From Takakia lepidozioides (taxonomy: Eukaryota > Plantae > Bryophyta), in contig CM060732.1 in NCBI GenBank assembly GCA_030704615.1, positions 18,786,001-18,850,000 on the forward strand: a stretch of 64,000 nucleotides of DNA, in the 5' to 3' direction. The position numbers and the translations under genes are program-made. Positions 37,365 to 61,803 of this stretch are shown in pieces. Positions within the stretch are counted from its first letter, which is position 1, and each line of letters begins with the position of its first letter. A model generated the notes under the pieces. It was not told the DNA's origin. It worked only from the letters and a program-made list of their open reading frames with translations, and searched no databases.

Positions 37365-39630
37365 AGTCTGACTCAGAGTCAGTACAATGTATCCCCACTT
37401 CCTCTGCATCTAAGTCTAAGTATTTAAGAACTCCGGATCTACGCTGGCTACACCTACGGCCGGGCAGTAAAAATTCAGGGGATAGGGACTCGGCCGCGTG
37501 AAGTGCCATTGCTTCGGCATAATCAGGAAGCAGAAAATTGGAAAGGGGGCTGTCGAAAACAGACTCGCCACAAATGACTGTATCTCCTGAAGATCCACCG
37601 CTGTCTTTCCTGAAAGACAGCCTGAAAAAGTTATTACTGTAACTTTGATGTTATTGAGAAATTGAGTATGACTCCCAAAGTGGGTTTAGCACTTACTCAC
37701 ATGAAAAGTCGTTGTCGACCTGCTTATCTTCGGGATCGTCATCATTTTGAATTTGAATCCGATCAGTCTATGTGCCTGAAGTGGAGCCAGACAAAAGGGG
37801 GAGGAGCACTGTGCTGTAGAGGTCAGAATCACCCTCCATGCCAAAAAGGCTTCTTCCGCCTGTCTTGCATGCATGGTAAGTTGCTCATACACCAGACAGG
37901 AGGACATGAACAATTTGGTGGGGGGGATTTAAGCAGATGGAACTGGTGAAAGAAAATCAATTTGGAAGGGAGAGAACGAACCTGTGGACACAGAAAGATC
38001 GACCACCCGTGCAGAGTAGTGGCTGCATGACTCCAGCAGTATTTGCATGAACGCTGGGGATTTTTCCTTTGCACCTCTCCAGGGAGTGCCATCTGGTCTC
38101 TTCAGAGTCTGACTGGACTGCATGAAGTTGTACAAAATGTCATCGACATGCGGCTCATAGGGGGGGTTGACGAAACAACCCTGGTCAGAAATCTCAAAGT
38201 TGCGGATGGAGGATGGTGTCTTGGAGGTGCGAATCCTCCGCAGGCAGATCGCCTCGAACATCCTCGTCTGCCAAAGATAGCAGGTTAGTGTGGTAAACAC
38301 AATCTATAGTGGAAGTGTGTACATCGACTATTCAGACTTCAGGCACAAAACAATCATTTTTATCACGAATCGGTGATGATCGGTGTCGATCATGACAGAT
38401 TCTTCTAGAGTGGAGCTGCAGAGAACATTGAAACTCATCATGAAAGCACAAGCAGAAGGGAGACGGCATACCAGCTGACCAGGGAAACCCTCTTTCACAA
38501 GGTAGAGGCTGTTCACACAATTCCATGTGCGCAAAACTTCAAACCCTGAAGACTTGAGGTATGATGCCAATGCCCGACGACTATCTTTGTCACATGACTG
38601 AAAAAGCAGAAGTGTCCCTGCATCAGAGAGGAAATTATTACAGAACCTGAACACCCAACTCCAGTAGTTGTCCTCGAATTTGTTCCAGCCTGGCGTCTTG
38701 CCCTTTGGAAGCACTTCTGGCACAGCCTGGCCATCCGGGATGTCGAGAATGACAATGTCAGCCGCATATGTTTTCTGCACACCACACACGAAGGTGGGAC
38801 CTGTGCTCACCTGCAAAAGACATGTTTTTTTTAAGAACGATGGCAAGAATGTTTTCAAAGAACCAAACTGAAATACTGCCAATGAAACTTTCAGAGAAAA
38901 AGGAAAGAAACTGGAATTCTCACCAGATTGAGGAATGAGATTATGTTGTCCCAGGTAGGCGAAGGCACCCCAGTGTATCCTCTCTTTCGACTCTGCATCA
39001 TCGACAGCCAACCCTCATTGACAATTTAAAACTCTCCTGCCGAATCAGAACGGGAAGGGTGTGGCTTGGCATCGAACACGCACTGAACTGTGCGGGTATA
39101 TCTTCCAGCAGTGAAGTCCTGCCCACTCTCCATCTCCTTTTCTTTCTCCTTCCCCTTGTCATTTTCCTTCTCTTTGGACTTGTCTTTGTCCTTTGGCTTT
39201 GCTGGTGAGATGGCTATGACATCAAGAGCCTTGTCTTTTGGTTTGCGGCCCGCCTTCTTTCCCTTCTGCGGCGTTCCTTGAGCATCAAGCTCCTTGCCAG
39301 CCAATGTTGCTATGTTTCTTTGGTACTCTTCGTCAGTCAGAGGCGCCAGCATCTCAGCATTATTGTTCAAATATTTCATATGCTGTTCTTGAAAGGTCGT
39401 GTGCTCCGGTGGGCAGTCAAGGTACCAGCCACAGTCTCTGAAGTGAGAAGGACTCCAGTCCTTCAATATCCCTGCAGTATACATGGTTGGATCGTTTGCA
39501 GGGTCCGACCACATGTCAAGATAGTCTGGAATACCGCTCAGGTGATTTCCTTCCATAAGCACATATTTCGTGTACATGTTAAACAAGAGATAAATCCCAA
39601 CCCACCAAAGCGCGAAGTGAGTAAGATGCA
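37365..39630 (-). pseudogene. Intron-containing beta-class amino (N6A/N4C) DNA methyltransferase-like gene, 3' half
   Basis: Predicted exons ~39625-38924, 38810-38472, 38267-37982, 37886-~37701 and a last exon to ~37365. Motifs occur in beta order: ADIVILDIPDG (DPPY-like motif IV), FLSDAGTLLLF, PWRGAKEKSPAFMQILLESCS, RVVDLSVSTG|ATYHACKTGGRSLFGMEGDSDLY (motif I and SAM-binding strand). Two acceptors read AT instead of AG, and there are in-frame stops. Confidence 0.8.
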
Positions 39631-39659
39631 AGTAGCACAGAATGAAAAAAACATAGAAT

Positions 39660-40245
39660 GAAATGGCTCTGAGAACTGCTCCAAGGACCTTTCAGGACCA
39701 CACGACTGCTCCGGATGTGAATGTCGTCAACGCCATTCAAAACATTCCATTCAATGATACTGTAAATACACCCTAATCCACGTGAATGCAAACTCTCGCT
39801 TTGGAATGACACAGACATAGAAGTGAATGTCGTCAACGACATTCACTTTGGATTTGTGAATACACTGCTAATCAAGCCTAATGATTTCTCAAAAGAGGCA
39901 AAATCATTAAATGAAAATCAGAAACTCGACTAAGGAACCCTCCCCAAACATTCATAACGAACATAACACTGAGGACCTTATAATAACACTGGATGTGTAT
40001 GGCGTCAACGCCATTCACAAAATTACCAACAAGGAACCAATTAATTAGCTCCCAATCCATGTAAATTCAAATTGTCGTTGGTGAATGACATAGATATAGA
40101 AGTGAATGTCCTCAACGACATTCACTTTGGATCTTTGATAACACAACTAATCAAGCCTCAAGATTTCTCGCAAGAGGCAAAAGCAATGCAGAACAACTGA
40201 ATGTCTGCATTGACATTCAGCAAACTGAAGTGAGGAACCCTCACT
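39660..40245 (-). repeat. Two ~280-bp tandem intronic units; a third copy lies inverted at 43810-44040
   Basis: Each unit has two GTGAATGTCGTCAACGACATTCAC-type dyads (39717, 39823, 39995, 40102; and 43865, 43987). Confidence 0.85.
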
Positions 40246-40619
40246 GTAAAGAGGAGAGGAGGAAAAAGAGAAAGCCCGCGGAAGGGAAGGCGAACGCGGG
40301 AGAGGAGGAGAAAGAAAAGAGAAAGCCGCGGGAGGTCAGGGGAGAAAGATCGTGGAGCGAAAAAAAAAAAAAAAAAAAAAAACATACAAAACGACGATTC
40401 CACGATTCGATCCCGGGATGCATCGCGGCGGAATCGCCATTCTTACCACTACACTATCCCTAAAAACTCAACAACCCCCTCCTGTAAAATTATATTTAAG
40501 GTGTTTTAAACCCCCCTTTGTATGTATAATGTTGTACATGGGGGGGTTTAAAATACCCCCTCCTATGCACGCACGTGGCTGGTACATTTAATGAGGAGTG
40601 CACCCCCCGGGAGGGAGAG
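40245..40619 (-). mobile_element. Displaced (inverted) left end of the P-like element: TIR 40596-40611, TSD copy 40612-40619
   Basis: The minus strand reads CTCTCCCT-CCCGGGGGGTGCACTC. The 16-mer is identical to the right end at 49378-49393, which is followed by CTCTCCCT. Both ends share TACA(G)GAGGGGG-like subterminal motifs. Confidence 0.85.
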
Positions 40620-40958
40620 AGACTTCCTTGTTCGCCGCCATTCATCAAAGATCCAGAGGAGGGCTCCTAGGAAACTTCATAAGCAGGCAGGTGGTACCTC
40701 CGCCATCACTGCCGTGGTTCCCTTGTGCAGCAAAAAAATAGACAAATGTGACAGTGAATCTTCCCTCATCTCTAAGCCACCGCCATCGTCTTAAAGAGCC
40801 CACATACGTGGCGCTCACATTTCTCGCAACGCAAGAAGAAAGACATTAGGGTTGCGCAGGGTTTTCCCCTGTCTGGCCCCTTAGAGAGAGACGCAGAGCA
40901 AGAGAGCAAATGACGAGGCGTCGTTTGTTGGAGAACACAGGGCCAAGGCAGCAGGTGA

Positions 40959-43776
40959 ATGGAGACTGATTCACAAGAGCAGACCGAGACTGAGGCAGCG
41001 GCTGATAACAGTGCGCGTTGGAAACCAGCCTGTGGATGCAGAGATGACTCGCAGGGAAATTGAAGGAGGTGGAAGCACGAGGAACGCTGAACCGGGAGAA
41101 GGTCCAGAAACCCTAGAGCAGACAGAAATTCCAGCAGATGTGAGAGGGAAGAGGAAAGCTGCAGAAGGGGATCCAATTTCAAAACCTATGAAGGCGCCAG
41201 TAAGTTTTCTCTAACTTACATTTCATTGTTGAAGATCTGCGTAGAGATTGAGTGGAATGTCCCAGAAAGGGATTGTCGCTACCGACCATCACCACGAAAC
41301 AACGGTGATTTGCTTTCTACTCCTCTATTAAGGGTTTACCGCACAATGAGTGGGTGACTGACGGTACCGTCAATCACCGTTGTTCAGATCATACAGTCTG
41401 TCTGATTGCCTTTCAAGTAGTCCTTCCTCTTCCCTTCTTTAGCAGGAACATGTGATTGAAGTCTACTGAATTGCGAGCGTCGTTAACGCCATTCGATTCT
41501 CCTCATGAGATTTATTTACCTATGTGTTTGAAGAGAGAGTGAGGGTCGGCATATTCAGTCATAATGTATTGCAATGCATTTTCTTTGTATGAGGTTGAAT
41601 AGATAGAGAAGTGGAAAGGCGGTACCGCCAATCAAAGATTTGAAGACCATACTGTAGATTCAGGTAGAGTATCGATTGGAAAGTACTCTCGACAAAGACA
41701 GGAAACCGTGAATGCTTGCAACGGTAATCACAATGGAGTCAATCTGAATAATCTGCACTTACTGTCCGCCCTAAACTATACTGAATGTCGTTGCCGCCAA
41801 TCACTTACACATATATGTCATTACACAACACCGATCTGGCAGGTCCTTATCTTTTGTGATTGTCGTTAACGCCGTTCACTATCGCTCTCGCTTTTGTTTT
41901 GAATTCGGCAGGATCAGCTTTGCTTGTGTAGATGGTTCTGAATTTGTTTCACACCATTCATTGTGAGTTTCTTCGAGACAGAGTGATGGTCGTTACCGCC
42001 GTTCACTATTTGCAAATTACTCAGTCAAATTTGAATGGCATCGTGCAGAAAACTGTGAGGTCCAAGCCTACAGGATCAGAGGGGAAAGGATCTGGAGATG
42101 GGGACGAATCTGGAAAAAGCTCAGAGAATACAGATGAAGCAGATGAATCTGAAGTGCACTACCTTGACAAGGTGAAAGAACTCATGTCATTCCAGAAGGT
42201 AAACTCTCAGGAGGTTATAAGGGACATGCTCGTATCTAGAGGGCGTCTGGACATCCCTCTGTGCCGGATGATATCTATGTCTGTTGTGCGTCCACCTCTT
42301 TCCCATGATATAACAAAATTGGAGAGTGATTTTGTGCATGGATACAGACTTGGTGCACAAGTTTTTTATGTGTCACTGACGGATATAAATGGGAAAAGCA
42401 CATTAGTGTCTCCAGAGATCAGTGATAACTGGGATGAGTGCTGGAAAGATGCCAATGAGGAGTTCGAGCTGGGCCTCATGATGGGAAAGAACACCCAGCA
42501 ATTCTGCAACCACATGTTCTACGTCTGGGACGGCAACCACCGATTGCTGGCATGGATGGGATACATCCAGAAACACCATGTGAAAGACAAAGACAAGCAT
42601 GTTGCTGTGGAGGCAATGGTTTTTGATCCAGGAAACGACATCGCTAGGCTTCTTACAGCTATGCACGACGTGAACAAGTAAGTCATCCTAGAGATTTCAT
42701 TCCCTCTGTAGTGTCTTGTTAATCCCCCAAAAACAGTGTTAAGGAATGCAATGTTTCCAATGTTTTTGCAGATCGACAGAGAAATCGCATGTGACAACAA
42801 GCTTGGTCCACACACTTTTCCAAATTCAGAGGATTGGTCTGATGAAGCTGGATGATTTTCGGACAGTACTCCCACCCAATATAATCAAGAAGTGCAAAAC
42901 AAGAAGAGCTGCAGGCACTTGGTATTCTTTGACTCGAGAGGCGTTTCTGGAATACATGTATGCGGTAAGCCCAAGTCTGTACTCAGTTTACTTTTTGAAT
43001 ACATGTTTGTAGTCCCTTCGGTGCTAATCACTATTTGAATCAATGCAGCAAGAACTAGCAGAGGCAGCTGAGAAGGGAAAATCCGAATATTACCGCACTA
43101 CACCAGAGGAACTAAGGACAAAGGGTGTGGAAGCAACAATAAAGAAGGAGTTTGAAATGCGAAGAACCAAATTGATGTCCGCCTTCAGAAAACAGCTTAG
43201 AATAGTAGATCCTGGACTTGGTTTTGAGTTCCTTCAGCAGATCAAATCTCACTATGACAAGCATGTGCATCCGGAGATGCAGCAGGAGAAATTGCACCGG
43301 TTGGCCATATCCATGGTCGACCCACAAACAAAAATAAGGTGGCTGGAGATATGGAACTCAGAAGGACTTGAATCAGTTCCCAAAGAGCACCATACAGCCT
43401 GGCACAAAGGTGAAAGGAATCAGTGATTTGGTGTTTGATAACTGGCTCCACAAGGCTACATTTTGGAGTCAGGTGTGTATTCAAATCAGCCGTTTTCTTT
43501 TCTTCAATTATGTGATGAGTATCTTATTTGCAATACTGACAAATATACAATTTGCAGCTCGAAAAGCGCGCCGTCATTGTGCTGGATCAGACTTTGAAGG
43601 ACTTGAACATTTCGATTGTTTCCCCTCCCCAAATGTCATTGGAGGCATACATAAGGAAGTGGAGAGGTCTCACCTGGAGATACTGTTTTTTCCGGGAGTT
43701 CTCCAAAGATGGTAACATTTTACGGTCCAACGACTTTGACAGTCAGGTTGGAGGAGAGTGGGCCATGATGCGAGTT
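40959..43776 (+). pseudogene. ParB/Sulfiredoxin-like-domain gene (copy 2), probable 5' half of a ParB-methyltransferase fusion
   Basis: Exons ~40959-41199, 42049-42677, 42772-42964, 43049-43472 and 43558-43776 are GT-AG. VRPPLSHDITKLESDFVHGY and FYVWDGNHRLLAW resemble ParB/Srx box I/II (DGxHR). Two frameshifts, and no terminal exon downstream on +. Confidence 0.78.
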
Positions 43777-44057
43777 GTGTACAGGTGCAATATCATACTG
43801 AAAACTCTACTGCATTTTTTGGGAAATAATTTGGCTTCATAAGGATTGTAATCATAGATCCAAATTGAATGTCGTTGACGACATTCACTTCTTTGTCTGA
43901 GTCATTCTTAAGCGAGAATTTGAATTCACCTGGATTAGGAGCTTAGGGTGTAATTATAGTGTCCCTGATTAGAATTGATAATGTCCTTGAATGGCGTTGA
44001 CGACATTCACATCCAGAGTTGTTGAGAGGTCCTCAGAGTCGTCCCTAGATTTCCAGA

Positions 44058-44460
44058 TGGCGGATTCCAAGCTCCAGATTACCTATGATTCCATGTGGAA
44101 TGATAGCTACAAGAAACCTGGATGGGTAGATGGTCAACTGGAAGCCACAGTAGTAGCTGCAGAGGCATGATGTACGCATTGTTAGTGTGGAGGGAGGGGT
44201 AGCTGTTGATGCAGGGAGAGGATCATGGGTGCAAAATCATCCAAGAGGGCCAGATTTGGAGCAAGGAACAGCGCTGGCAGGAGTTCTATAAATTTGATCC
44301 ACAGCGGTGGGACAATATTGTCAACAAGGTGAGCTTTCTTCATGCAACATCGTAGGGAGTTTGACAGAACTTTGTATTTAAATATGTTAGTGTGGAGGGA
44401 GGGCTAGCCGCTGATGCAAGGATGGACTGTGGGTTCAGGATCACCCAAGAGGGCTACCAG
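44058..44460 (-). repeat. Dispersed repeat family R copies at the inversion breakpoint
   Basis: Reverse complement of TTGACCATCTACCCAT..GGTTTCTTGTAGCTA..GGTAATCTGGAGCTTG and GGCCCTCTTGGATGA, also seen at 51770-52035, 60740-60910 and 61632-61803. Confidence 0.75.
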
Positions 44461-44766
44461 CAGTGGAAGTAGCAGCATTTGGTCAATAGCAGCAGCAAAA
44501 ATTAACAACATCAAACTCATCAATCAGGTACTTGCTTCTGTATACATTTCATCCTCTTATGAACGTAGTTCCTACTTGGACAGCCTATAGGGTTGTATAA
44601 AACAGGACTTTGGAACCTTCCAACCCGGGTGCTTTGTTATTGGTCTATCAAGGTCTGATTTGAAATGTTTTCATTGCATTTTGCAGGTGAACTCATCATG
44701 GAAGAAGAGTTGGAAGTAAAAGTCCTGCTTGTTTGAGGAGATGCATCACCAAACAGGCTTGGTTCT

Positions 44767-47700
44767 GTGTTCACTATGCAAGGTGTCACATACAAATGCA
44801 TCCGAGCAGAAATTATAGGTGATGAGCTTGTCTCAGCAAAATTTCCTTTCCTTTCCATGGGGGGTAGTGTCCTTTCAGCCAAGCAAGAAGAGAGGATGGT
44901 TCTGAAAGGGGATACTGTACACATTAAGATTTCAGACCAAAATGATGGGGACCAAGGATTGAAAAAACCTCTATCTTCCAGTGGTTCTACGATCTTGCAT
45001 GAGGACAGACCAGGCGAGGACCCGACACCAGTGTCTACCAAGATGAGGATGGACCCTGATACACCCTTTGCTGGCGATGGTGGAAATGAAGACCATGCAC
45101 ATGAGCATGCACTTCAGCAAAGATCTGGTAGATTGTGCAGCACGTTGGCTACATCCAACGATATTCAAAAATGGCATAAAGAGATTAGAGCCGTTGAAAG
45201 GAAAATCTCTGCAGAAGGACGATGTGACAAGTTTGAGCTGATGACAAAGGATCAACAAGCAATGTTCCACATATGGTGTGTTGAGTGTGAGGATGTTTAT
45301 GCACGGTCTGGGAAAAACAAACCATATGATGCATGTGCAAACTTTATGAGATCTCATTTGAGGAGTGAGGGGCATTGCATAGCCTATGAGAGGCGTCATG
45401 GGAAGGGTTCATCACAATGTGTCATCAGCCCTGTAAGATGAAGCATTAGACGCAAAGAAGAACAGGGTGAAGGAGGCATTAGAGGAAGTCGCTCGGTTTT
45501 GTGAGGACAATCCTGGAAACAGATTTGAGATTGTGGAAGCCACAATTGGAGACTATTCGCAGTTGGGTTCCATAAGGATTAGGTGCCCACTGGATTCGAA
45601 GTGGCTACTCTTGTTTCCAAGGACAGGTTCTTTGCAATCTTCTTTGACAGAGCATGTGAAAGGAAAAACTCATGTCGATGCAGAGATTTGCCAGAAGGTT
45701 GGAAGTAGTGAAGGACCTTGCAAAAAGAGAGGAAGGCCTCCAAAGCCTATGATTGCCAAAGATGTAAAGCAACGGGATCTAAGCTCTTTCTTGGTCAGTC
45801 AACCTGTGTTGCTGTCCCCACCACTTGACAATCCAATTGTGGCATCAACAATGGGAGCATCCTCGTCACAAACTCCATACGCTTGTGTTGACGCTGCCCA
45901 ACGGGGAGATCTGATCGAGGATTGACAATTACAGCAAAGGTCCCAATGCAACAAAGGAAGAGACAGTTTGTGTTGGGGCCTATGGGATGAATGGTGGGAG
46001 TACAACCAGCAGAGAATAAGTCTGAAACCATTCCTTCAAGATAGCAAGGGAGGAAAGAAGTGGTATGTCGAGCTGTTGACAAATGCAACCATCACTCTAA
46101 ACAATCGAGAGCATAAGATTGTTGGTACGTTTCGGCACGCGGATTGTTTTAGAGTGTCATTGGATGGGGAGCCATTTCCAAACTTGAGATGTTCAGCATG
46201 TTCTTCCATTCCCTTGGAAAATGACTTCAGAATGAGGGTATATAGAGAAAGAGGTGCCATGGAATGTAGAGGGGAGAGAGATACTGGCAAGGGAAGAAGG
46301 TTGTCATATCTTGGAAATGCGGAGATTGTCAAACAAGTTTACAAAAACAGACAGGAGTTGAGGCAGTTGAGGTTCAAATTGTGGGAGGCCAGGACCAAAG
46401 TGGCATCATTGTCTGTGCGATGTAGGAGTTTGAAGGAGTCTGGGATTGAGGCAATTGAAAGAGGAGATGTTCTCAAATTTTGTCGTGATATTGTTGATGC
46501 ACATAGGAGGGGGGATTTTGAAGGAAAAGAAAGTTTGTGGGATTTTCTTGTTGATATGGGCAAGAATATTGACAGGTCTCCACAAGGGAAGAGGTATGGT
46601 ACTAGCACAAAAACAATGTTTGAGACTGTGCAGCTTTGGGGGGGTCCGAGATTGCATCATTTTTTGGCTTCAAATGTGGGGGGTCCTTCTATTGATACTA
46701 CAAGACGGTCTTTGAGGAAAGGTTTGAAGTATAGAGCGGGAGAAACGGATGATATATTTCAGCATGTGGCTGGAATTTACAGAGATGTGATGGAAGATGC
46801 AAATATTCCATTGGGAAGCATCCCAGTGATGGTGGCCGAAGATGAAACTGTTGTGAAGCGATTGGTACATTGAATTGCTAGGGATGACACCCTTCTCGGG
46901 TTTTGTGGGCTTCAAGACAACCATGTATGTATTTCAAATTTTGTGGTGCAAGTGGGAGAAGGGGAATCAGGGTACCAACATATTGTGGAGGCATTCAAAA
47001 ACAATGTGGTTGCCCATTATGCTAGAGTGTTGATAGCAAATCCTCTACATGTACGGTTACCTCGATTGGTATTGGTAATCCAGCTCACTTGCAATAGATT
47101 TGACAACAATTTTGTGAGATCACAATGGGAAGTGGTGAGACAGTTGTGGGACAAATATGCGAGGGACGTGGTTGGGCCTATAATTGGGCATGCTTCAGAC
47201 GGAGATAGTAGGAGGAGAAAAGTGATGTTAGAAGATTATGCCAATGGGGCTGGAAATAGATTTTGCATCCCTTGGGAATGATGGTTGTTTACAGGTCGAG
47301 TGTGCAACGGGGGAGATATATACGGACTCCATGATCAGGACTTCATCCACAATGGGAAAAAATTGGTGAATCCCTTGGACAGTGCATCACGGACTTTGGT
47401 GTTGGGTGATGAGGTTGCTACATTGAATCATGTGTTATTGGTCTACCATTCATTTTCAGTGGACAAGCATGGACTTCGGGAATGTGATATCAAAAGAGAA
47501 GATCGACAGAATTGGGCAGCAGCTCAACGACTGGCATCTCGGAAGGTGCAAGCTTGTTTGAGGGAGTTACAATCAACTGTGAATCATCGAAGAGAGAGGA
47601 CCAAAGGTACTGAAATTTACCTATACATCATTTCATGCTACATCGACATTTTTTTGTCTCCTCACATGTCATTGTGTGAGAGGGTACAATCTGCTGCGAA

Positions 47701-49102
47701 GGTATCATTTTTTTTCAGATTGTGGAAGTTGTGGCTATTCCAGCACGAGGTGTATAATCTGAAATCCTTCTTCATTAGCAGGGAAGCATACTTGGATTTA
47801 CAAATTTCATGCCACTACGTTATCAAATTGTTCAAGGATAAGTTTAATCATGTGCAAGTTCCTTTGAGCCTTGTTGGTTCAGATGTGTGTGAAATATTCT
47901 TCAGCAAAGTGGGAGGTATGTCACGGAATGAGAGGACATATGACGGGTGTGATTTGATTGAGAGTGCGGGAGCATTAACACGCATATCCGAGTTCGAGGC
48001 GAATCCAAAAGGACCCAAGTTCTCAAGAGCTCACAAGAAACAAGAACACATATGGTCTTCTTTGGAGAAGAAGCCAGGTATCCCCCTTGCTGATTTGTCC
48101 GACTTTTCTACTGTCCAATCGGATGATTGCATTGTGGAGGCTTTGAAAACTGGATTTCTAGAAGCGCAACTTTTATGCCATAAACTTGGGATGAAACCAA
48201 ACAAAGCAACAAACTTGGATTGGTGGAATGAGCCATGGACAATTGAGAGACAAATGGAGGTCGAGCTATTCAAAAGCATGGAAGAGGAGGGTGATGATGT
48301 CAATGCCATAGATTCTATTTGTCCTCTTAATGCAGACACACATATTCAAAATGAGGTCGTGGAAGATGAATTGGTGTGCGGGCCTTCGAATTCAATGGAG
48401 GATGTTTTGAGCCAACCTTTGGATGATCATGCGGAAGAGGTACTTGTTCAAAGTGAATTGAGACATACTCTGGATGCTGTCATTGATGAGTTTGAACAAG
48501 AGAAAGATGGATCGAAGGCAGTGGTTCCATTTGTCAAAGTAGACGGGAAGACCATATTCAAAAGCACTTTGGTTAGCCAACTCAATGGCAACCCTACTCT
48601 ATCCAAGGATAGATTGACACAAGTAAGAAGTGCATTGATGTTGTTTTGCCGAGAAAACAAACCAACTACCAGCAACAAAGCCACGAGCTTGGGATTGGGT
48701 TCGGATTGTGCTGTATTTTTTGTTGATGGGGAGACTGCGATCCAAACTACAAACAGGAAAGGTAGACCAGGGAAAACCTGCAGAGGAGTAACCAAAGGCA
48801 CTTGGTATTTGGGCAGGGTTCAAAGAATGCGGAAGAAAATCAATAAGCGGTTTGTAGAATGTAGGGATTCTGTTGATTTATTGGAGCGTCCTTCTCATAT
48901 GGAGATTGGGTTAGCATGGTACCAAAAAATTCAAGGAGGGGTCTATACATACGATTTGACGGATAACATGATGGTTGATTTGGATTCCATTATCGCGTTA
49001 GCATGTTTAAAGTACAATGTCAAGTCAAACACATATGTTCTTGATGCAAATGACCGAAAAGTCTTTGACAACTTTATCAAAGGCAAATATTTTTTTAATT
49101 AA
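44767..49102 (+). pseudogene. P-element-like DDE transposase (~1400 codons, apparently intronless; three in-frame stops and one frameshift)
   Basis: 45467-49102 is a single frame. AEDET, HASDGD, QDFIHNGKKLVN, EDRQNWAAAQRL and GSDVCEIFFSKVGG parallel the P/THAP9 motifs FDEM, SDMG, DxPHLxKxxRN, KMxVxxAxQ and QDxLENFF..R..GG. The N-terminus has two C2H2-like fingers and an AT-hook (KKRGRPPK). Confidence 0.75.
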
Positions 49103-49139
49103 TTTGTTAGATTTTATTATGTTTTAAATGAATAAATTC

Positions 49140-49401
49140 GATATAATATAAAAACATACATATACATATTGGAGGGTTATTTTTAATGATGAAAAATGAG
49201 AATATACATACAGAAGGGGGTACTTTTCGAAAATTGTAAATTTTTGTATATTTACAGGAGGGGATTTTATAATCTTCAAAAAGTATGTACAGAGGGGGTA
49301 TAAATTATCCAAGGACCCGTATACATGGGGTTTTTTTTATTAGGCGACGAACGCATGTGATACGCACAGTTTATAAAGAGTGCACCCCCCGGGCTCTCCC
49401 T
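49140..49401 (+). mobile_element. Right end of the P-like element: subterminal repeats, TIR 49378-49393, TSD 49394-49401
   Basis: GAGTGCACCCCCCGGG-CTCTCCCT, preceded by about five TACA(G/T)..GGGG motifs. Confidence 0.85.
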
Positions 49402-49539
49402 CCCTTTATAAACCCTACCTTTTGAGACCAAGCTCTTTTTTCTTGTGCTTGGCAAGACTTTGCTTTGGTTAAGGTAGCAGTGTTGTGGTGCTGGTGGAGA
49501 CCTCCCTGCACGGTTAGGCTTGAGGAGAGATGACGACTC

Positions 49540-51400
49540 TCCCCCAAACAGTAAAAAAGGTCACTTGTGGCTTCGGCCTGATCCACAAAACCCTTCACGT
49601 ATCATGAAACCAGCAGCACCGTATGTTCTCACTCCCGCTGAAATCACGATATTTCTTGATACTTTGGGGGCTATCAAAACTCCTTCGGGATTTGCAGGTG
49701 CATTTCAGAAACACATACACCCGTCTAGGAAACATTTGACGAGTATGAAGTCCCATGATTATCACGTTTTCATGCAACAGATTTTACATGTGTGTATTCG
49801 CCATTGCATGGCTCCAGGCCCACGTGGGGTCATTATGCGTGTGAGTCGCATTTTCCGCCGGATTTGTGCCAAAGTATGGGACCCTAACGAAATAGATTCA
49901 TTGCGTGAGGATGTTACTATAACCTTGTGTCTGTTAGAGAAAGAGTTCCCCCCTTCTTTCTTTGATGTCATCTCGTAGATGAACTAGACACATGTGGTCC
50001 AGTGTCTTCACGGTGGATGTATCCCATGGAGCGTTACATGAAAGATCTCAAGGGATACGTTAGGAATTACGCAAAGCCAGAAGGGAGTATGGCTGCAGGG
50101 TATGTTCTTGATGAGGCCATGGGGTGCATGAGTGAGTATATGCAATCATTTGATGCAACTCAACGGCGGATTTGGGATGAAAATGCGGAGGAAGGGGTTG
50201 AGAACAAGGTCTTGGAAGGTGTCGGCAAAAAGCGGGACATGAGTAGAGCTGAGAGAGATGCAGCACATTTGTATGTGCTGAACAATACCAATGTGATGGT
50301 TCCTTGGGTGTAGTGAGTTCTTCTTTTCATTGCACCTTATTCATATCAAGTTCAAATGCAATTGTGACTGTCACCAGTGTAATAGAACCACCCACAAAGT
50401 CACAAATGTCAATGGTTCATCGTGATGATAACCACTTCTGTAGTAACTGAATGTCTAAGTGAATGACTTTTTGGAAGAACATGTTCATTTACAAGTCATT
50501 CTGCTCACTCATCCAGTGGTTTTCAAAGTATCATTCATGCTAGGTATTTTTTGCAAAGTAATGCAACACTTCATTGCTAACATGTGTCATTCTTGTTGCC
50601 ATTTTGTGACATAAAGTATGCAACAGAGAAGACACAGTTCACTGCAGACAGAGAGGCATGTGCTCGTGAGTGGCGTGCCAATCGTCGACGTCACCGCCGC
50701 CTTCCGGTGCCATACCCTCCCCATTTGTTGGAGTTTCCACCCCTACCGGTATGGATACGCCGTGCAGTCCAGGCCCATGTCTCTGAGCATGGTGTTGAGG
50801 ATACGGATGTAATTCATTTGTCTACTCCCCCCTCATTGAGATCAGCTTCATTTCATGGCAGGAAGGCGTATGAAAATCATTATTGAGTGGATGACACGGA
50901 GAGTCGTCTTCTTGTCTCTTTTGATTCCGGAGTTGCATCCGTCTTCCAGCAACAGAGCAGAAATAGTGTGCGTGATAGAAATCCAGTCATGTCACCATTG
51001 GAGTACGTTGGGGTCATCAAAGAGATCTTCAAATTGGATTATGGACGAGTGCACCCCATTGTATTTCGTTGTGCTTGGGTGAGGGCCAACCTAGTTGGAC
51101 AAAATGCTACAATGAAGCGGGATTTGTATGGTTTTCTACTTGCAAATTTTGGGAGGATGTTACCCGCCAATGATCAGCCGTTCATCTTTCCATCTCAAGT
51201 TGAACAGGTGTTCTTTTCGGATGAGTCCCCAAGTTCGGAGTGGAAGGTAGTCCTTCGGAAGGATCCCAGCCTTGCACACGCATGGCAAACACAAACAAAT
51301 GTGATGTGGTTGGGTTTCACCCTTCGCGCAACAGTTGCTCATAGGTTTCCAAAGCACTCCTACCACACCCATCCTTGGTAAATCCTGCCAACATTATATT
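49540..51400 (+). mobile_element. CACTA (En/Spm) Tnp2/TnpD-like transposase, 3' fragment (DUF4218- and DUF4216-like regions)
   Basis: APYVL..IKTPSG..MKSHDYHVFMQQIL..CLLEKEFPPSFFDV..GPVSSRWMYPMERYMKDLKGYVRN..PEGSMA..Y and YVGVIKEI..LDY..FRCAW..DQPFIFPSQVEQVFF..WKVV. The N-terminal part and CACTA termini were not seen. Confidence 0.9.
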
Positions 51401-51769: not shown

Positions 51770-52035
51770 TCTGCCGCTGCAGCTACTACCTTTACTTGAC
51801 CATCTACCCATGCAACAGGTTTCTTGTAGCTATTGATCCACATGGAATCATAGGTAATCTGGAGCTTGAAATCCAGCCCTCTTGGATGAATCTGGACCCA
51901 CACTCTATCCCTGCCCCTTCAGCTATCCATACCTCTGCAAAAATCATGCATGCATCATTGTCTTGCTGCTAGCAGCTGACAATGACAGCCTAGAATTGTT
52001 CCAGCAAACACCCCAACCCTACTTATCACACTAGT
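51770..52035 (+). repeat. Dispersed repeat family R
   Basis: Closely similar to 60740-60910 and 61632-61803, and inverted at 44058-44460. Confidence 0.8.
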
Positions 52036-52439: not shown

Positions 52440-53068
52440 AAAAGCCACACCTTGTGATTGCGGTTGTCCCACCATCGTGAAGGATCTTTATGAGGAACCC
52501 ACACGGTGCTGTATCTGCACCTTGTTTCAGCGGCAGATTTTTTACTCCCACATTTGCTCACGCCACAACGCAGACATTTTGGTTCTGTAGGCACGACATA
52601 ATGACCTGTGTATTTGGCAAGCCCAAGTACGGGATTCAGGGAATGCCGGAGCCTCCGGGCGTCTGGCCTGTTGCACCGGGTTGAAACCTCTCTCAGAATG
52701 AGGCGGATGCTCTATCTGCAGCAGGATGTCGAATGGTGCAACGCACAGACATCCCGACCCACGCATTTCCGGTTTCTCAGATCCAGCCATTGCAGACTGC
52801 TCGGTCCAGTAGAGACGGATTGGACAATTCTGCACATCCCACAATGCGATTCGGAAGAGTGAAGAGACGACACCCTCCCAACAAGTTGAATGAGACTCGG
52901 ATTGCCAATGCTCTTGGGATGGCTTGCACTATTCAGAGCTCCGTGGACGTACCCCCACCCGGCCTTGGGCGTGTGTATCGGATGGCAACGGCCGGCTCGG
53001 CTGTACGCGACGATGTATACACAATTACGATTAGAGTGGAGCCGACTTGCAATTGTACGGACTTCTCG
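52440..53068 (+). pseudogene. Third, more divergent MULE transposase C-terminal fragment, truncated inside SWIM
   Basis: SAPCFSG..FWFCRHD..PPGVWPVAPG..VPPPGLGRVY..DVYTITI..CNCTDF aligns with 26835-27710. It ends at the junction with the RT of Gypsy B. Confidence 0.8.
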
Positions 53069-54089
53069 GATGATGTCATCTATGTAGCACCGAGCAAAGT
53101 CCACCCCTGCTAGAATCCTATCCATGACTCTCTGAAACTCTGCAGGAGCATTCTTAAGCCCAAATGGTAAGAACCGCCATTGATATAGGCAATCCTTGCC
53201 GTGCTCATTGATCCCCCAGAATGCCGTCTTCTGCTTGTCCGCCTCCTTGATTGGCAGCTGGTGATATCCGGATCGTAAATCCAAAGTGCTAAAGGCCTTA
53301 GCATGCCCGATGGCATCAAAGATCTCCTCTGGTGTTGGCATGACATACTTATCGAACTTGGTCTGACGATTTACAGGCCGGTAATCACCGCACATACGTC
53401 TCTCCGTCCAATTGCCATAGACATCCTTCTTGGCTGGCATCACTGTGGCTGAAGCATACTCTCCACCAGAGAGCTCCACCAAACCTGCCTCCCAGAGATT
53501 TTGAGTCCTCATCTGAATCAAAGACCTCTCCATGTCACTGTATCTATAGGGTCTCCGAAAGATTGACGTGTCAGTGGCCACCTCAATACGGATCTCTTCA
53601 CCCTTCAGTGCTCCCAAGTCCTTCAAACTGAAGGCAAAGCAATTCCTGTAAGCCCTCAGGAACCGCCGTATACGTCGTCTCTCTCCTCCGGTGACAATGG
53701 GTCCAATGTCAGGCTCCCAATTGTCCTCCGTAACTGCAACCTTAAGTCCAGTGGGCTTAGAGGTAGAGGACGCGTCCAGTGGTTGCTATGTTGCAACCTC
53801 TTGAGCAGTACTCCCTGCCTGCTCAGTCAATGACAAGGCCTCATCCTGCCCCATCATCTCATCCTTGAGGACCTCCTCAACCCGAGAAGAATCCCCAACC
53901 TCATCCATCACAGCCGCCTTGGCTGCCAACTCCCTCTGAACCTCGAGCACCTCCCACGTGTGCCATGGATGCATGCACCCCGTGGTCCTCACATGCTCGC
54001 CCCCACTCACTGCCTGTACCGTCTCGGTAGGCAGAGAGACCATTGAGGGAAGTGTACTCCGCACTCTGCGTTGCTCAGCCAGAGCCAAG

Positions 54090-54890
54090 CTGATAATCCA
54101 GGTCAAGCAATTGAGATCCATTGCTTGCCCCAACACTTGACGACGTGATGCCTCAGAAAGAGACGACACCGCCGTGGTACCAGTGGTAAAACCCATTGCC
54201 CGCTCACGCTCATCAGCATTAGGCTCCACTAACTGCTGCAACTGAGCATCCCACAAGAGGCCAGGTCCACTGTGAGATGTGCTGGCCGCTGCACCCCATC
54301 AAATGCACGCTTGAGCAGTGCGGGTGGCATCAAGTTAGTCCACCATAGCCGTGGACGATGAGCCCGTGACCCCACTATAGCTGCATCTAGCAACACTGCT
54401 GACCCAAGCCACGACCGGGCTTGATGCACACTGGCCATCACCCTGGCTCGAGAATCGCCCATCAGTGGCACATTCTCCAAGACGTATGCTGGAGATACAG
54501 CTTGATGAAGCTGCAAGTGGCGCAAAACCCGCACCATCTCCCAAAACAAACTTGACCTCGAGTTTCGCAATCCATTGCCATGCCCGGCTGATGAATGCCC
54601 TTGGCAAAGCCAACCTGCCACTACCAGATCAATGGAGCCAACCCGCTCCAAATCCTGCGCCCCCAGCAACGAAATGTCTGCTGGCAAGGCCTGCTGATAT
54701 CCACGAATTGCAAACACCGACAACAACTCAGGGTACCGCTGCACCAACTGAGCAACATGGCGAAGTGAAACGCGTCGTGCAGTCTTATCCCTTTCCACAT
54801 ACAGGTAACCCCGAACTCGTACACCTGCTTATAACACAGCAGCCAATCCGGTGCTGATCCCGCCAAACAAGTCCAGAAGACAAATGCCTT
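54090..54890 (-). pseudogene. DNMT3-like C5-cytosine DNA methyltransferase domain within the Gypsy B polyprotein
   Basis: Motif I LLDLFGGISTG, II YVERD, IV DLVVAGWLCQGHS, SSLFWE, VI YVLENV, VIII AHRPRLWWTN, IX ERERAMGFTTGTT, X RRQVLGQAMDL. In frame with the protease; one TAA at 54829 and a frameshift near 54265. Confidence 0.93.
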
Positions 54891-57800
54891 CATCCAGATA
54901 CTGCCACACAATAGGTGTGGTGTCCAATGGAGACAATTGAGGTGGTCTTGGTGCAATCCCCGCACTCTCCTCCTCTCCTGACGGTACAAAAGCCTCCACC
55001 CAGGCTTGTTGCACCCGTCGATCAGCATCCCGCTGCAAATCCTTGCTCGTGCCCCACAATGGAGTCTGAGCAACCATGGTAGGCAACTCCGCCATACCAT
55101 ACATGTCATCCTGCTCTCCCGGAGGTGGTACATCCTCTGAATGAGCATTGCCCTCAAGCAACTTTCTAGGCCAACTTACTGCCGCTGTGAATGCTGCTAG
55201 TGTCGGCATCTTGCCTCGCTGGGCAACCGCAACTCCTCCTATGAACGTCACAGGGAGCTGCACACGCCGGCCCTCCCCTGACTGCCATGCAGGCCTATAG
55301 GAAGCCGACTCCTCCCAAAAATCCAGGGTGAAGCCCATGGGGTACAACACTGCCCCACCAACCAGGACATCGTATGAGACTGCGTCTGTCACAATGGACT
55401 TGGCTCGCATCACTGAGCCATCTGTAGGGTGATCCGGCCGTAGTCTGATAGCCAACTCACGCCGTGTCATGCCCCGAGTCTGCTCCGATCCTCCCAGAGA
55501 CATATGTATCTGGAAAGGACAAGGCTCCATATCCGCCTCAGTGAGGCCCAAGCTTGCAATAGCAGCTCTGCCCAGCATCAATGGCTGAGCTCCCGAGTCC
55601 AACAAGACCCGCAGTGGCCGGTACCTCTTGCCTGCCGGTCCACTCAAACAGAAAATGCCATCCTGGTTGTCTAACATGACAACTCCAGGTGTCACCATGG
55701 CCCGCTCAATGGCTGGCCTAGCTAGCAGCTCCATCAACCTGGCAGCTGCAGCTTGCCATGGCGCCGCCGTGGCAGTCTTGACCCTCAAATCCGAGGATCC
55801 CTCCGGCACTACACCTCCTACTATCTCCGCAGAAGATGAAGTAACCTCCCCACTCTCACAGAGTGTAGCTGCCAGCCTGAACACCTGAGCTGGTTTTACC
55901 CCCAGCGTCGCAATCATGGTAGCTGAGAACAATGGAGCCTGGCACACAGATGTGGCCGCTCCTAGCAGCACACTAGCTGCCGCAGCCTTGGCAACACTAG
56001 GTAGTGGTGCTACCCGTGTAGCTCTCCCCAATGGCATAGTAACCTCCGCCTCGGTAATCGTCGGGCAAGAACTAGGTGCCATGGATGGCGTCGACACTGT
56101 CTCCGCCAATGTGAATGACTGAGGAAGCCTAGCCTGACAGCTTGCCTCCCCACGTTGTGGATCCAACTCCACCTCTGCACCTCGTGGCTCAGGAACTCGT
56201 GCTGCTCCTCGAGTCACGGCTGCAGCAGACTCTACCTGCACTAGTGGTAGTGCTGCTCCACACATGAATCCCATGCCTCCCATATCTCCTCCCTTAGGAG
56301 CAGGAGGTGGACCATCCGGCCTTAGAGCCGGTACCACCTGAGCTGTAGCCATGGCAGCGAGCCTCTGCTCTAGCTGCTGAAGCCGGTTGGCCATGCCTTG
56401 GTCAACACCCTGACCTCCGTGTCCTTGGCCACGTTGAGCTTGCCCTTGGCCTGCACCTCGTGGCTGGCCACCTCGTCCTCTCTGGGCTGCTCCACCTCGC
56501 CCCCGGCCACCATTGTTCCCTTGGAACTGGCCTGGGCGCAACTCAAGATGCAAACCATAACACTGGGCCTCTCCATGCCCGTGCTTGCCACAATGCCCAC
56601 ACTGCAACTGTGCAGGCTGTGCATGTGCCGACCCTTTGCCTCCCTCTGGGCAATCCTTCTTGACATGGGGTCCTCCACATGTCTAGCACACCACCTCCGC
56701 CCGTTGTTGGTCAGCAAATGAAGGGAGAGACCCCTGCATCTAAGGTCCTCTCTGCCCTTCCCTGAGCTTCACCTGAGCCCCCTTGTTGCCTTGAGCACGT
56801 TGAGGTAGTGGTTGGCTAGGAGCACCACTACCCCGTGGTGTCTCCTTAGCAAATCCCACCATGACCACTCGTTCCTCCACCATGTTGAGCTCTATCCGCT
56901 CTGCCAGCAAAAACACATTTGCTAAGGTGGGTTGGGCCGCTTGTAGGAGAGTTGCATCCCGCACCCTTCTCCTCAGCTCCTTGTCCAATATCCCATACCA
57001 GAATTGGACTGCCTGAGCTTCCGTAACCCCTTGGGTTACATTTATCAAGCGCCTCATGCGAGTGAAAGCCTCCCTCAAGCTCTCGATCGGCTTCCGTTGG
57101 AACTCTTGCAAGCTCCGCAACTTCTCTGTCCTCACCCCTTGGTAGTTCCCTCTCAACTCTTCGAAGAACTCCACAACAGGGTTGAAGGCAGGCACGGGTG
57201 CTAGTGCTGGTCCGGTAGTGGCTTGGGTGGACGTCATAGCTACTGTATCACCAGTCCCACTAGTTCCATTGCTACTTGCTGAAGCTGCCGGTGCAGCGGC
57301 AGGTGTAGCCACTGCCCTCGTGGCTCTAGTGCCCCTAGTGATGGAGACATAGTCGGGTGACCAGTACATCCTCCACTCCTCAATCTCAACCTCATGCCCC
57401 CGCCTGAACTCATGGTAATCATCCATAGGCGGCCCCTCAAGGTGCTGAAACAGCCCTTTCCATGCCATGAACGGCGTAAATAAATGTGGATTGCGCATTT
57501 GCTGCAAATCACACCAACTATCAAACTCTTGGATAAAATCATCCAACTCGATGGTGCCCACCGCCCCAGAGTACCTTCGTGGCCCCTTGGTAGCTCCATA
57601 CATCTCCTCCATTGTGTCCCACAACAATGACAAAGAAACAACTTGCACCGCCGGTATGAGTCCTCCTGATTCACAATCCGAATCAGAACCTTCCGTAGAA
57701 GACACAGGAGGTGAAGGTGGCCTAAACCGCACACCTCGTCTCGTGTACCCACTAGTATCGCTAGTGCTCGAACCGGCCTTGTCCCCAGCAACTAGTGGCA

Positions 57801-58479
57801 CCTCCGTGTTGACACTCAACCGGTCATGAACATGTCCCTAACCCCCTCTCCACAAGGTAACCGGGTAGAGAACATGTTGCGGCTTATGGTTTGGAATACT
57901 AAGTTCCTAACATAGCCTACACCTGTACCTGCATCCACCGCAAGCACTCCTATGGTTGGCTGGTCATCACCTCCAACCTTACCACAGGAGAAACAATGAT
58001 GGTCTGGCTGGTCATCACCCCAGCCTCACCATCGACAGCATGCTCTAGGACTGGCCGGTGATCAAATCCGGACCAATCACCTATAAAAACAAGCGCCCAC
58101 ACAAAACTAGCATGGCGCACAGTCAAGCATGCAGGTATGGAGGGGATCCAAACACAAGAAATCATAACGACAACTCCCCCACACCAAAAACAACTCCACG
58201 GTGTTGCTCCTGCAAGGGCACCCCAGCCCAAACCCGGACTGACTCTTGCCTCCACCTACGGAAAGATCTTGGCCTAATGAGAGGGTGGAAACTACGAGGA
58301 AGAGAAGCTAAAGCAATGCCTAACCCCAGCATGCCCTCATCCCAATACTCTTCCTCTCCTCTCTTCCCTCACTTGCATGACCATGGGAATATCATGAAGA
58401 TACTCCTCAAACCGCCCTCCACGAGCTTCAAAATTCGGCCTTCAAGACCACATGTAAGTCCTTAGGCAGTCCACCAGTG

Positions 58480-59612: not shown

Positions 59613-60739
59613 TAAGGGAAGTCAGCCCTTCCCTCTTCCTTGCTTGCCCTCCAAGCTTGAAGATAGAAGCTTCAATGAGCTGAATACATGCTCCACATAT
59701 GCAACCTCTTCACACACGAGATATCAGCCCCCTATCTTGGCTCCTTGGCTCCTTGATGCTCTCTAAGACAAGACTAAGCACTCCACAGCCTTTGCCAAGC
59801 TCCTGAAACCCTAAGGCTTACATTTCCAGCCACAAGACACTTCTCTTGTGGTGCAAGAGCTCTTCTTCCAAGCTCTGAAACCCTAGGTGCACATTCCATG
59901 GCCTTGCCGCACCTCTTAGCTCCTGTTCCAGCCCTGCTCTTGCCATGACAAGAGCCCTCTCAATGCTGAAGCTTGAGATTGAAACCCAATCTCACCATAC
60001 TCCACAAAGTGCACTGATTTGCCCCAAGCCAAATCAGCCCTTTCGCTTGGTCTTGCAATCATTCACACAATGAAAGCTCGCATTCCCAAGTCCAGTTCTC
60101 AGCTTTGCCACTAAAGCCACTATAACCTGCTCTTGACTGGTCCTCTTCCAATCGTGCTTGCTCATGCATGTACACAATCTGAAACCATCAAGGTGCTCTG
60201 GAATTACCTGTAGCATGGTGCTTTCATCTCTGAAGCTGAAGATCGAATGCCAAGGTCTACCACCTCGTAACCCACATCGCCTCCGCTTCTAACAACCAAG
60301 AGCTCCACGGTGCTCCTTGCATAACAACTTGGTTTCTCTCATTCTCAACAAAAACCACAAGTGCTACAACTAACTTGTATCTGGCACTCACAGATACGAG
60401 CTGATCTTTCTCGAGTGATAAAGAAGAAGAATACAAGCACGAGCTCACAAATCTGAAGCATAAACTCATGCATATATAACCTCATCACTCAAATACAAGT
60501 CAAGCCAAGTGCACCCCACGCCATGGGGAATCCACACTACGGCGCCATAGCTAGGCGCGGTGAGGCTCAACTCGAGAAAGATGAGCTCTTCCGCGCTTGC
60601 CGTGAAGATAACCACTCCAGGGCCTAAATCTGCCTTGACCCCTTGATTGACACTTGGGCCAATCCCAAATGTCAATATGTAAAAGCTAGCTATTTCCTAG
60701 CTAGTTTCACACTAGTGGTAAAATAACTTGACAGTGTCG

Positions 60740-61803
60740 CTGCTGCTGCGGCATGACAGTTGACCATCTACCCATGCAGGTTTCTTGTAGCTATTGATCT
60801 ACAGGAAATCATAAGTAATCTTGTGCTTGAAATCTGGCCCCTTTTGGATGAATCTAGATCTACTCTCTATCCCTGCTCTTTCAGCTATCTCTGTTTCTGC
60901 ACAAATCATGCACACATCAGGGAGCTAATGATAGGGGAGGAGGGCATGGCAATTCGAACCAGGGTAGGGAAGCTCAAATATTGTGCTCATGAGGATATGG
61001 CAAAGGGTGGATCCTCAACTAAAAACTTGCTGGCCTTTGTGGAGGATCTCAAGTCTCAGATTGTGCAGACCAAGCCTTTGCAGGAAGAATGATTGATTGT
61101 TGACACTGTCTCTTGCATGCCCTAAGATCTGAAAATCAAGTTGAAAAAGTAAACCACGTGACTCTGTTCAACCCATCTGCTGAAGGCCTTAAGAGACATT
61201 TAGGGCTGGTTCTGATAAGAGAAAAAATAGGGTGAAATGTGTTGAAGAAGGTGCCTTGAGTAGCAGTGCCTGAATTTTATCAATTGTGCCGCCGCTTCTT
61301 CTCTCATTCCACAGGGATTCATAGGTACTATTAATGTGCTGGGTCAGTGAAAAAATAGTTTTTTTTTTTACTTCTTATTATCCACATATATATTGTTGTA
61401 TAATTTACTGCTGCCTGCAACCCCGATTTCAACGCGACTGCCATAACATTCAAGGCCACCACGTCCTTAGAGCCCCAAACCTGCCAAAGGAACTTACAAC
61501 CTAGCTCAATAATCCACAAGATCAAAAGATAGGGTATGGTTTGTATGCAGGCCTCACGAAACAGGCCAGACAGGTTGAGCTGCGCATCGACCGCAGAATG
61601 ACAAAGGCCAAAACATAGGTTGTAGCATGCCAATCTGGAGCTTGAAATCCGGCCCTCTTGGATGAATCTGGACCCACACTCTATCCCTGCTCCTTCGGCT
61701 ATCCATACCTCTGCACAAATCATGCATAGTACCTCCTTGCTTTGCTGCTAGCAGCTGACACCTAGATTTGTTCCAACAAACACCCTACTTCTCACACTAG
61801 TTC
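60740..61803 (+). repeat. Two further copies of repeat family R plus a block related to 63274-63556
   Basis: 60740-60910 and 61632-61803 match 51770-52035. 61408-61633 matches 63274-63556, partly inverted. Confidence 0.75.

Follow-up and report, generated by a model that had tools for sequence, protein, structure and literature searches.

A probable dead DNA transposon with a predicted P-type transposase fold in Takakia lepidozioides

We analyzed a stretch of 64,000 nucleotides (nt) from the moss Takakia lepidozioides (assembly GCA_030704615.1, contig CM060732.1, positions 18,786,001 to 18,850,000, forward strand), referred to here as the window and numbered from its first letter, which contains a transposon-like element in the region from 40395 to 49401. 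The element is very probably a dead DNA transposon with a transposase of P-type fold; it inserted at CTCTCCCT with an 8-base pair (bp) target site duplication (TSD), and its left end, together with the adjoining flank, was later most likely inverted. By its predicted fold the transposase is P/THAP9-like, and we rate the family as a lineage of the P superfamily, divergent and found in seedless land plants, which has intact members elsewhere. The window copy itself carries three stop codons, a frame-shifting 5-bp deletion and ends which lie in direct orientation.

A preliminary description of this DNA had proposed a P-element-like transposon at 40596-49401 built around a long degenerate open reading frame (ORF) with P/THAP9-like catalytic motifs, and the coding part of that proposal was borne out. 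The degenerate ORF covers about 1440 codons at 44776-49102 and is broken by one frameshift and three in-frame TGA stops (45923, 46871 and 47279); relatives have W or Y at the column of the second stop and G at that of the third. The N-terminal part is read in another frame than the main part (Table 1), and its translation, taken from the open piece, matched the N-terminus of an intact relative (E 4e-5). Contigs from public sequencing runs (X1, X5, X7 and X9, of which X5 belongs to another study than X1) were aligned to the region, and all of the X1 and X5 contigs covering position 45435 had five extra bases there, with which the N-terminal frame would join the main frame. When the proteins of two intact relatives (L009 and L008, see below) were used as tblastn queries, the matched region was 45521-49087.

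To place the protein by structure, an AlphaFold2 model of 797 amino acids spanning 45926-48316 was built from a 40-sequence alignment (predicted local distance difference test, pLDDT, 86.0; predicted template modelling score, pTM, 0.73). A Foldseek comparison with P transposase had been put forward earlier as a check, and its best matches were P element transposase chains 6pe2_A (E 9.1e-11) and 6p5a_A (E 1.2e-10) with target-normalised template modelling (TM) scores of 0.65 and 0.68, followed by RAG1 (E 8.6e-5, TM 0.32). Alignment with VIA-align laid model residues 204-691 onto residues 137-566 of P transposase 6p5a_A, with 401 of 442 residues aligned (Z 23.3, root mean square deviation, rmsd, 4.3), whereas the scores for other folds were Z 10.2 (Transib), 9.3 (RAG1) and 9.1 (Hermes). 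The alignment takes in the helix-turn-helix (HTH) region ahead of the RNase H domain, and architecturally the model is of P type: an HTH region is followed by an RNase H domain which an all-helical insertion divides in two. When single ORF pieces and the profiles A1 and A2 were searched against the sequences of solved structures, no transposase was matched.

The candidate catalytic residues were identified from the model and from conservation among relatives. The predicted first Asp, D306, was D in all 23 aligned relatives covering the column; at the predicted second Asp, D425 was conserved in 30 of 31 relatives and D427 in 31 of 31; and the predicted Glu, E656, was E in 39 of 39. The four residues D472, H475, K478 and K479 of the DQDFIHNGKK motif were each found in 33 of 33 relatives. 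This predicted Asp-Asp-Glu (DDE) triad (D306, D425/D427, E656) occupies the places expected from the P fold. The passages of PMC7776569 dealing with P transposase give its list of domains, an 8-bp TSD, a guanosine triphosphate (GTP) cofactor in the insertion domain and 17-nt staggered end cleavage, and the positions of our candidate residues in the modelled fold match the architecture described there.

The ends of the element were defined by two copies of the identical 16-mer GAGTGCACCCCCCGGG at 40596-40611 and 49378-49393, where 0.01 would be expected by chance. As had been noticed beforehand, the likeness of the two ends continues inward (43 nt at 77%, about 43-70 bases overall) and both are accompanied by G-rich motifs of the TACAGRRGGGG type. 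Near 49393 there are four of these motifs, all sharing a strand, and near 40611 there are three, which differ in orientation. The left terminus is supported by contigs of other copies, which cover 40395-40608 or 40395-40611 and then pass into unrelated sequence, and the 5' ends of L008 and L009 match 40548-40611 on the minus strand. The inner limit of this left-end segment is masked by an A-run at 40360-40394. Both 16-mers lie on the plus strand, and the 8-mers next to them, AGGGAGAG (40612-40619) and CTCTCCCT (49394-49401), are reverse complements of one another rather than a direct duplication.

An empty site was found among the contigs. An X5 contig of 168 nt (depth 25.3) aligned to 40609-40700, and the 21 letters preceding the aligned part were the exact reverse complement of 49405-49425, giving the order left flank, single CTCTCCCT, right flank. 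An uninterrupted site with a single CTCTCCCT implies that the 8-bp target duplication is genuine and that, in the window, the left junction lies reversed. Two X1 contigs join 40634 to 49394 on opposite strands, and an X7 loose end ahead of 49394 matches the reverse complement of the flank 40620-40632; both show the same flank continuity in diverged copies. A loose end in X5 at 40878 gives the limit of the inverted left flank. The TSD of the preliminary description was therefore right as an event and wrong as a direct repeat within the window. The view of one intact unit bounded by inverted termini had to be given up, the termini being direct and the left junction flipped, and so had its extent: the DNA from 40612 to about 44273 (about 3.7 kb) is flanking or foreign, and the left-end segment to the left of 40611 had been omitted.

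Over the subterminal part of the left end (40486-40589) X1 depth reached about ten times that of the element body, which suggests many short non-autonomous relatives with this region in common. Some copies of the left-end region end in GGGTGCACCCCCCAGG rather than ...CGGG. A transfer RNA-like origin of 40383-40465 was considered, and none was indicated by ARAGORN or Rfam.

Contig depth over 39500-44273 was 10-20 times that over 44274-49700 in runs X1 and X5, with the drop falling between the bins 43933-44273 and 44274-44614. Because of this depth we take 40878-44273 to be a separate high-copy repeat which is not part of the element. For its ORF at 41932-42681, which has a WDGNHR motif, the ESM Atlas pointed to DUF3723, borne by 47% of the members of the top cluster (score 0.95) and by 31% of those of the second (score 0.94), and to ParB_N (11%, score 0.91); Pfam gave no match to the ORFs of this repeat. 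The two inverted-repeat arms at 39689-40185 and 43811-44039 share the inverted pairs I1-I4, with stretches of 129 nt (84% alike), 133 nt (77%) and 52 nt (85%), and align by blastn at 79% over 223 nt, and the left junction was most likely flipped by inversion between them. A palindromic 28-mer of the type AAGTGAATGTCGTCAACGACATTCACTT was present in twelve copies in three clusters (39689-40222, 41267-42008 and 43863-44012), the outer two of which form inverted arrays around the flipped segment. These clusters may be putative binding-site arrays of the high-copy repeat.

Relatives of the transposase were readily found. Homology searches returned 92 and 21 relatives, some of them intact with lengths of 1122-1530 amino acids. 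Named sources among them were confined to one fern, Adiantum nelumboides, and two liverworts, Riccia sorocarpa and R. fluitans; a look-up of 10 cluster representatives and a further search started from relative P0126 added no names. When 1.84 billion representatives were searched with a profile, the number of clusters matched was 5514 at a threshold of E <= 1e-3 and 867 at one of E <= 1e-30. The closest ESM Atlas clusters were Basidiomycota proteins (scores 0.94-0.97). Intact long ORFs were present in many transcript-like contigs, and a scan of metagenome contigs gave 24 loci. One of these, L009, is an intact element of 6096 bp with perfect 26-bp inverted ends (CTCGGGGGGGTCACTCC...), the 8-bp TSD GTTTTCAT on both sides and an open ORF of 1493 amino acids. 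Locus L008 has about 8.8 kb between 15-bp ends (CCCGGGGGGAGCACT), an ORF of 1514 amino acids and no target duplication; L010 has one end of the same type as these two; and L023 has TGGGGGGACACT ends with a 9-bp repeat, containing one mismatch, if the tips are shifted by two bases. The expectation that other copies would show 8-bp TSDs was upheld by L009 and not by L008, and L023 is ambiguous.

The ends of the family are of the type C(C/T)CGGGGGG..CACT, beginning with CCC or CTC in the element and its relatives and not with CA. A CACGTGCG-like box, which may be a putative binding site, lies 30-48 bases from the tips in both the window and L008. When the 5' regions of L008 and L009 were compared with the window DNA, likeness was confined to the termini. 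Contig joints at 44828 to 48907, 44845 to 48907 and 45068 to 48177 leave out 3.1-4.1 kb of the body, and short filler is present at two of them; they resemble the derivatives with internal deletions that cut-and-paste transposons typically give rise to.

The protein domains outside the catalytic core were also characterized. The claim that CCC termini, C2H2-like fingers and an AT-hook stand in place of a THAP domain agreed with our results, since zinc-finger-like CxxC...HxxxH modules and a GRP AT-hook were found in the protein and Pfam gave no THAP. Fold searches of the N-terminus for THAP were filled instead by a ubiquitin-like domain: a model of the L009 N-terminus (pLDDT 77) has such a predicted domain at residues 1-80 (Z 7.8, rmsd 2.4, 68 of 75 residues aligned; Foldseek E 6.5e-3). 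This model matched ubiquitin-like folds only, and the finger-like modules behind the domain gave no fold match. A C-terminal module at 48560-49099 (columns 1600-1860 of alignment A2), which follows an acidic stretch, is conserved in most full-length relatives with the motifs KSTLVSQLNGNP.LSKDRL... and then WYLGRVQ.MR... A Tudor domain was considered for this module from a Pfam match in relative P0121; that match does not align to the window module and the assignment is not claimed.

The Pfam catalytic models for P/THAP9 (TNP-like RNaseH_N, GBD and RNaseH_C) had no match in the window protein at E up to 1. Among relatives, P models matched 1 of 22 (TNP-like_RNaseH_N, E 2.6e-4), 1 of 15 (the same model, E 0.081) and 2 of 41 (Tnp_P_element HTH, one at 23.7 bits against a cutoff of 23 and the other at E 0.0063), and every one of these matches was weak; ESM Atlas clusters bearing TNP-like_GBD scored 0.87. 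The pattern, with P models missing the window protein and weakly matching a few relatives, fits the earlier suggestion of a distinct P-related clade. No hAT dimerisation domain, KDZ domain or other transposase Pfam family was present in any of the proteins scanned, KDZ having been sought at E up to 1 and, in the set of 41 relatives, up to 0.01. An Ulp1 (C48) protease domain was found in 2 of 22 relatives (P0082 and P0088, best E 4.9e-22).

Set beside known systems, the modelled protein shares with P transposase and THAP9 the HTH region, split RNase H domain and helical insertion, by a wide margin its best structural match, as well as a coiled-coil-like long helix before the HTH and an acidic stretch after the core. 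The element also resembles them in its 8-bp target duplication, short terminal inverted repeats (TIRs), separate subterminal motifs and internally deleted copies; such TIRs are present in L009 (26 bp, perfect) and L008 (15 bp), and the window ends are identical at 16 of 16 positions and direct. In contrast, identity to P transposase is 12-14%, Pfam P models mostly fail, and no THAP was found in the window family. Intact relatives begin instead with a ubiquitin-like domain at the N-terminus, and CxxC...H...H fingers, an AT-hook and a Cys/His-rich beta module are present in them as well. The termini also differ from the CATG of P, the C-terminal module is additional to P transposase, and the family proteins, at 1100-1530 amino acids, are much longer than the 442-456 residues of P that the two structures resolve. 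Outside animals, a P-related group is represented by the class 'P-Fungi' of RepeatMasker/Repbase (Pucciniales and Allomyces), which is named in annotation tables and which we compared by description only; kinship with the present family, whose closest ESM Atlas clusters are Basidiomycota proteins, is a possible lead; the passage of PMC5751038 concerned with fungal P elements reports them only from Pucciniales and Allomyces.

The hAT elements (Hermes, Ac) are alike in their 8-bp target duplication and in having an RNase H domain with a helical insertion, but the Hermes match was weaker (Z 9.1, rmsd 8.0, 295 residues aligned) and the hAT dimerisation domain was not found by Pfam. Transib and RAG1 form the second-best fold class, far under P, and Transib makes a 5-bp target duplication whereas that found here is of 8 bp. 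Kolobok elements have a TTAA target duplication, unlike CTCTCCCT and GTTTTCAT, which are both of 8 bp, and a THAP domain, of which none was found in the present family.

Membership of another superfamily (hAT, Transib, Kolobok, Sola or Zisupton/KDZ), the P likeness being only that of a common RNase H fold with an insertion, is on these comparisons very unlikely. The low identity to P transposase would allow it, as would the 8-bp duplications which hAT and Zisupton also make, the Ulp1 domain in two of the 22 relatives and the fact that the closest ESM Atlas clusters are unnamed Basidiomycota proteins. These points have to be set against a Z of 23.3 over 401 residues for P compared with 9-10 for Transib, RAG1 and Hermes, an alignment that extends over the HTH region in front of the RNase H domain, the lack of any hAT dimerisation, KDZ or other transposase Pfam family in the scanned proteins, and duplications which are not TTAA. 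That the locus is no transposon but a host gene of THAP9-like, domesticated kind is barely credible: intact long ORFs do occur in many transcript-like contigs, but the window copy has stops and a frameshift, the element has defined termini, a target duplication and an empty site, and there are internally deleted copies and a relative with perfect TIRs.

Two further explanations concern the order of the pieces. An assembly error over the high-copy inverted repeats, the true locus having inverted ends and a direct 8-bp duplication, is unlikely but keeps an appreciable chance. The bracketing repeats are of very high depth, and all X1 contigs over 40632, 45254 and 45435 show small insertions or deletions relative to the window, which means that the window sequence contains errors or stems from another individual; on the other hand, the uninverted order was not seen in the aligned contigs, which alone cannot decide the matter, and an X5 contig (44191-44867) crosses the depth drop in the window order. 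We give a small chance to two truncated copies of one composite (flanking repeat with nested element, at the same site) lying in opposite orientations. Such a composite could have been copied, the flank itself being repeated (X1 depth to 44,000 at 40642-40667), and no contig was seen linking 40395-40611 to 44274 onward. The two pieces are nevertheless complementary, one consisting of left end and left flank and the other of body, right end and right flank, and they are bracketed by inverted repeats as a single inversion predicts; independent truncations would need a chance match.

Several points weigh against our preferred reading of a P-type element inserted with an 8-bp duplication and later inverted at its left end. 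The link to P comes mainly from predicted structure, the Pfam P models being without a match in the window protein; the candidate residues are putative counterparts of D230, D303 and E531 of P transposase by their place in the fold; and Kolobok and Sola have no solved structure, so the fold comparison leaves both out. Pfam scans of the pieces from the window and of sets of 22, 15, 41 and 2 relatives matched no THAP. A clean 8-bp duplication occurs in two of the four two-ended copies (the window and L009, not L008 or L023), and the identical 16-mers of the window form a direct repeat rather than TIRs. The empty-site contigs may be paralogous copies of the repeated flank and not an allele, no contig joining the left-end segment 40395-40611 to the body was seen, and the order in the window may yet be an assembly error.

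On the preferred reading, members of the family would move by cut-and-paste transposition. The G-rich motifs and, at 30-48 bp from either tip, the CACGTGCG-like box would serve the transposase as subterminal binding sites; ends of the type C(C/T)CGGGGGG..CACT would be paired and cut by the predicted DDE triad, and joining would be to target DNA cut with an 8-bp stagger; by analogy with P, use of GTP is possible. The inversion in the window copy would have arisen when the inverted arrays of the 28-mer (39689-40185 and 43811-44039) recombined with each other, and it would leave the copy immobile as a unit. The coordinates of the features are collected in Table 1.

Table 1. Features of the element and the flipped segment in the window.
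Feature	Position	Strand	Remarks
Inverted-repeat left arm, palindromic 28-mer arrays	39689-40185	.	Partner 43811-44039
Left (5') end segment, inverted	40395-40611	-	16-mer; relatives' 5' ends; three G-rich motifs
Left TSD copy, as reverse complement AGGGAGAG	40612-40619	-	
Original left flank, inverted	40620-40877	-	Contiguous with 49402 onward in uninterrupted copies
High-copy repeat	40878-44273	+	ORFs 41932-42681 and 43028-43426; inside the segment read as inverted
Inverted-repeat right arm	43811-44039	.	Partner 39689-40185
Element body and right end	44274-49393	+	Start approximate, set at depth drop
Transposase N-terminal part	44776-45441 (open piece 44737-45441)	+	Frame 1, other than main frame
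CxxC...HxxxxxH finger	45277-45375	+	Inside N-terminal part
Main transposase frame, 1221 codons	45437-49102	+	Frame 2; TAA stop at 49100
AT-hook GRPPKP	45731-45748	+	In main frame
AEDET motif, D306 (predicted first catalytic Asp)	46835-46849	+	Strand E301-311, first of RNase H fold
SDGDS motif, D425/D427 (predicted second catalytic Asp)	47195-47209	+	After strand E419-424 (fourth strand)
DQDFIHNGKK motif, family-invariant	47333-47362	+	Directly ahead of all-helical insertion domain
CEIFFS motif, E656 (predicted catalytic Glu)	47888-47905	+	Helix H653-661, past insertion domain
Right subterminal region	49200-49393	+	Four G-rich motifs; ends in 16-bp terminus 49378-49393
Right TSD copy CTCTCCCT	49394-49401	+	

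The sequence around the element is itself rich in repeats. A unit of about 200 bp at 44045-44257 occurs again at 51772-51958 and, on the minus strand, at 60739-60857 and 61645-61750; it had by far the top depth in X7 (1298) and X9 (10640), runs which we guess to be RNA. In many contigs a CAG-type repeat follows after 44145. At 49478-51381 there are ORFs which contain DUF4218 and DUF4216, domains that also occur in plant transposons of the CACTA type, and the P-like element is inserted just upstream, in what seems to be a repeated DUF4218/DUF4216 unit. Further along, a minus-strand run of ORFs at 52712-57837 resembles a long terminal repeat retrotransposon (reverse transcriptase E 7e-16, weak gag and aspartyl protease).

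With regard to plant transposons in general, an older classification table reportedly lists P for plants, and our literature searches, which did not extend to Repbase, turned up no account of elements like these from land plants. The superfamily list in a 2022 review gives six TIR superfamilies for land plants, P not included (PMC9033089). In a 2025 survey of 1007 plant genomes, P was screened for with Pfam models at E < 1e-5, and the seven superfamilies reported there do not include P (PMC12973397). The present family fails exactly such a Pfam filter, yet it has the predicted P fold, 8-bp duplications and intact members, and it is likely that standard plant transposon surveys miss it. A broader proposal, for which we see as much in favour as against, is that the family forms a branch of the P superfamily which lacks THAP and has so far gone undescribed. 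Its transposase would start with a ubiquitin-like domain and continue with zinc fingers; the branch would comprise thousands of clusters, with possible kin in Basidiomycota, and in seedless land plants it would still have intact members whose ends are perfect. Surveys would have missed it because the Pfam P models are blind to it.

If the P-type reading of the family is true, the transposon repertoire of plants would gain a superfamily, and the P catalytic core would be one that can work behind a DNA-binding front end of another kind. Elements that are intact, L009 among them, would then be candidates for asking whether GTP dependence is ancestral to the P superfamily.

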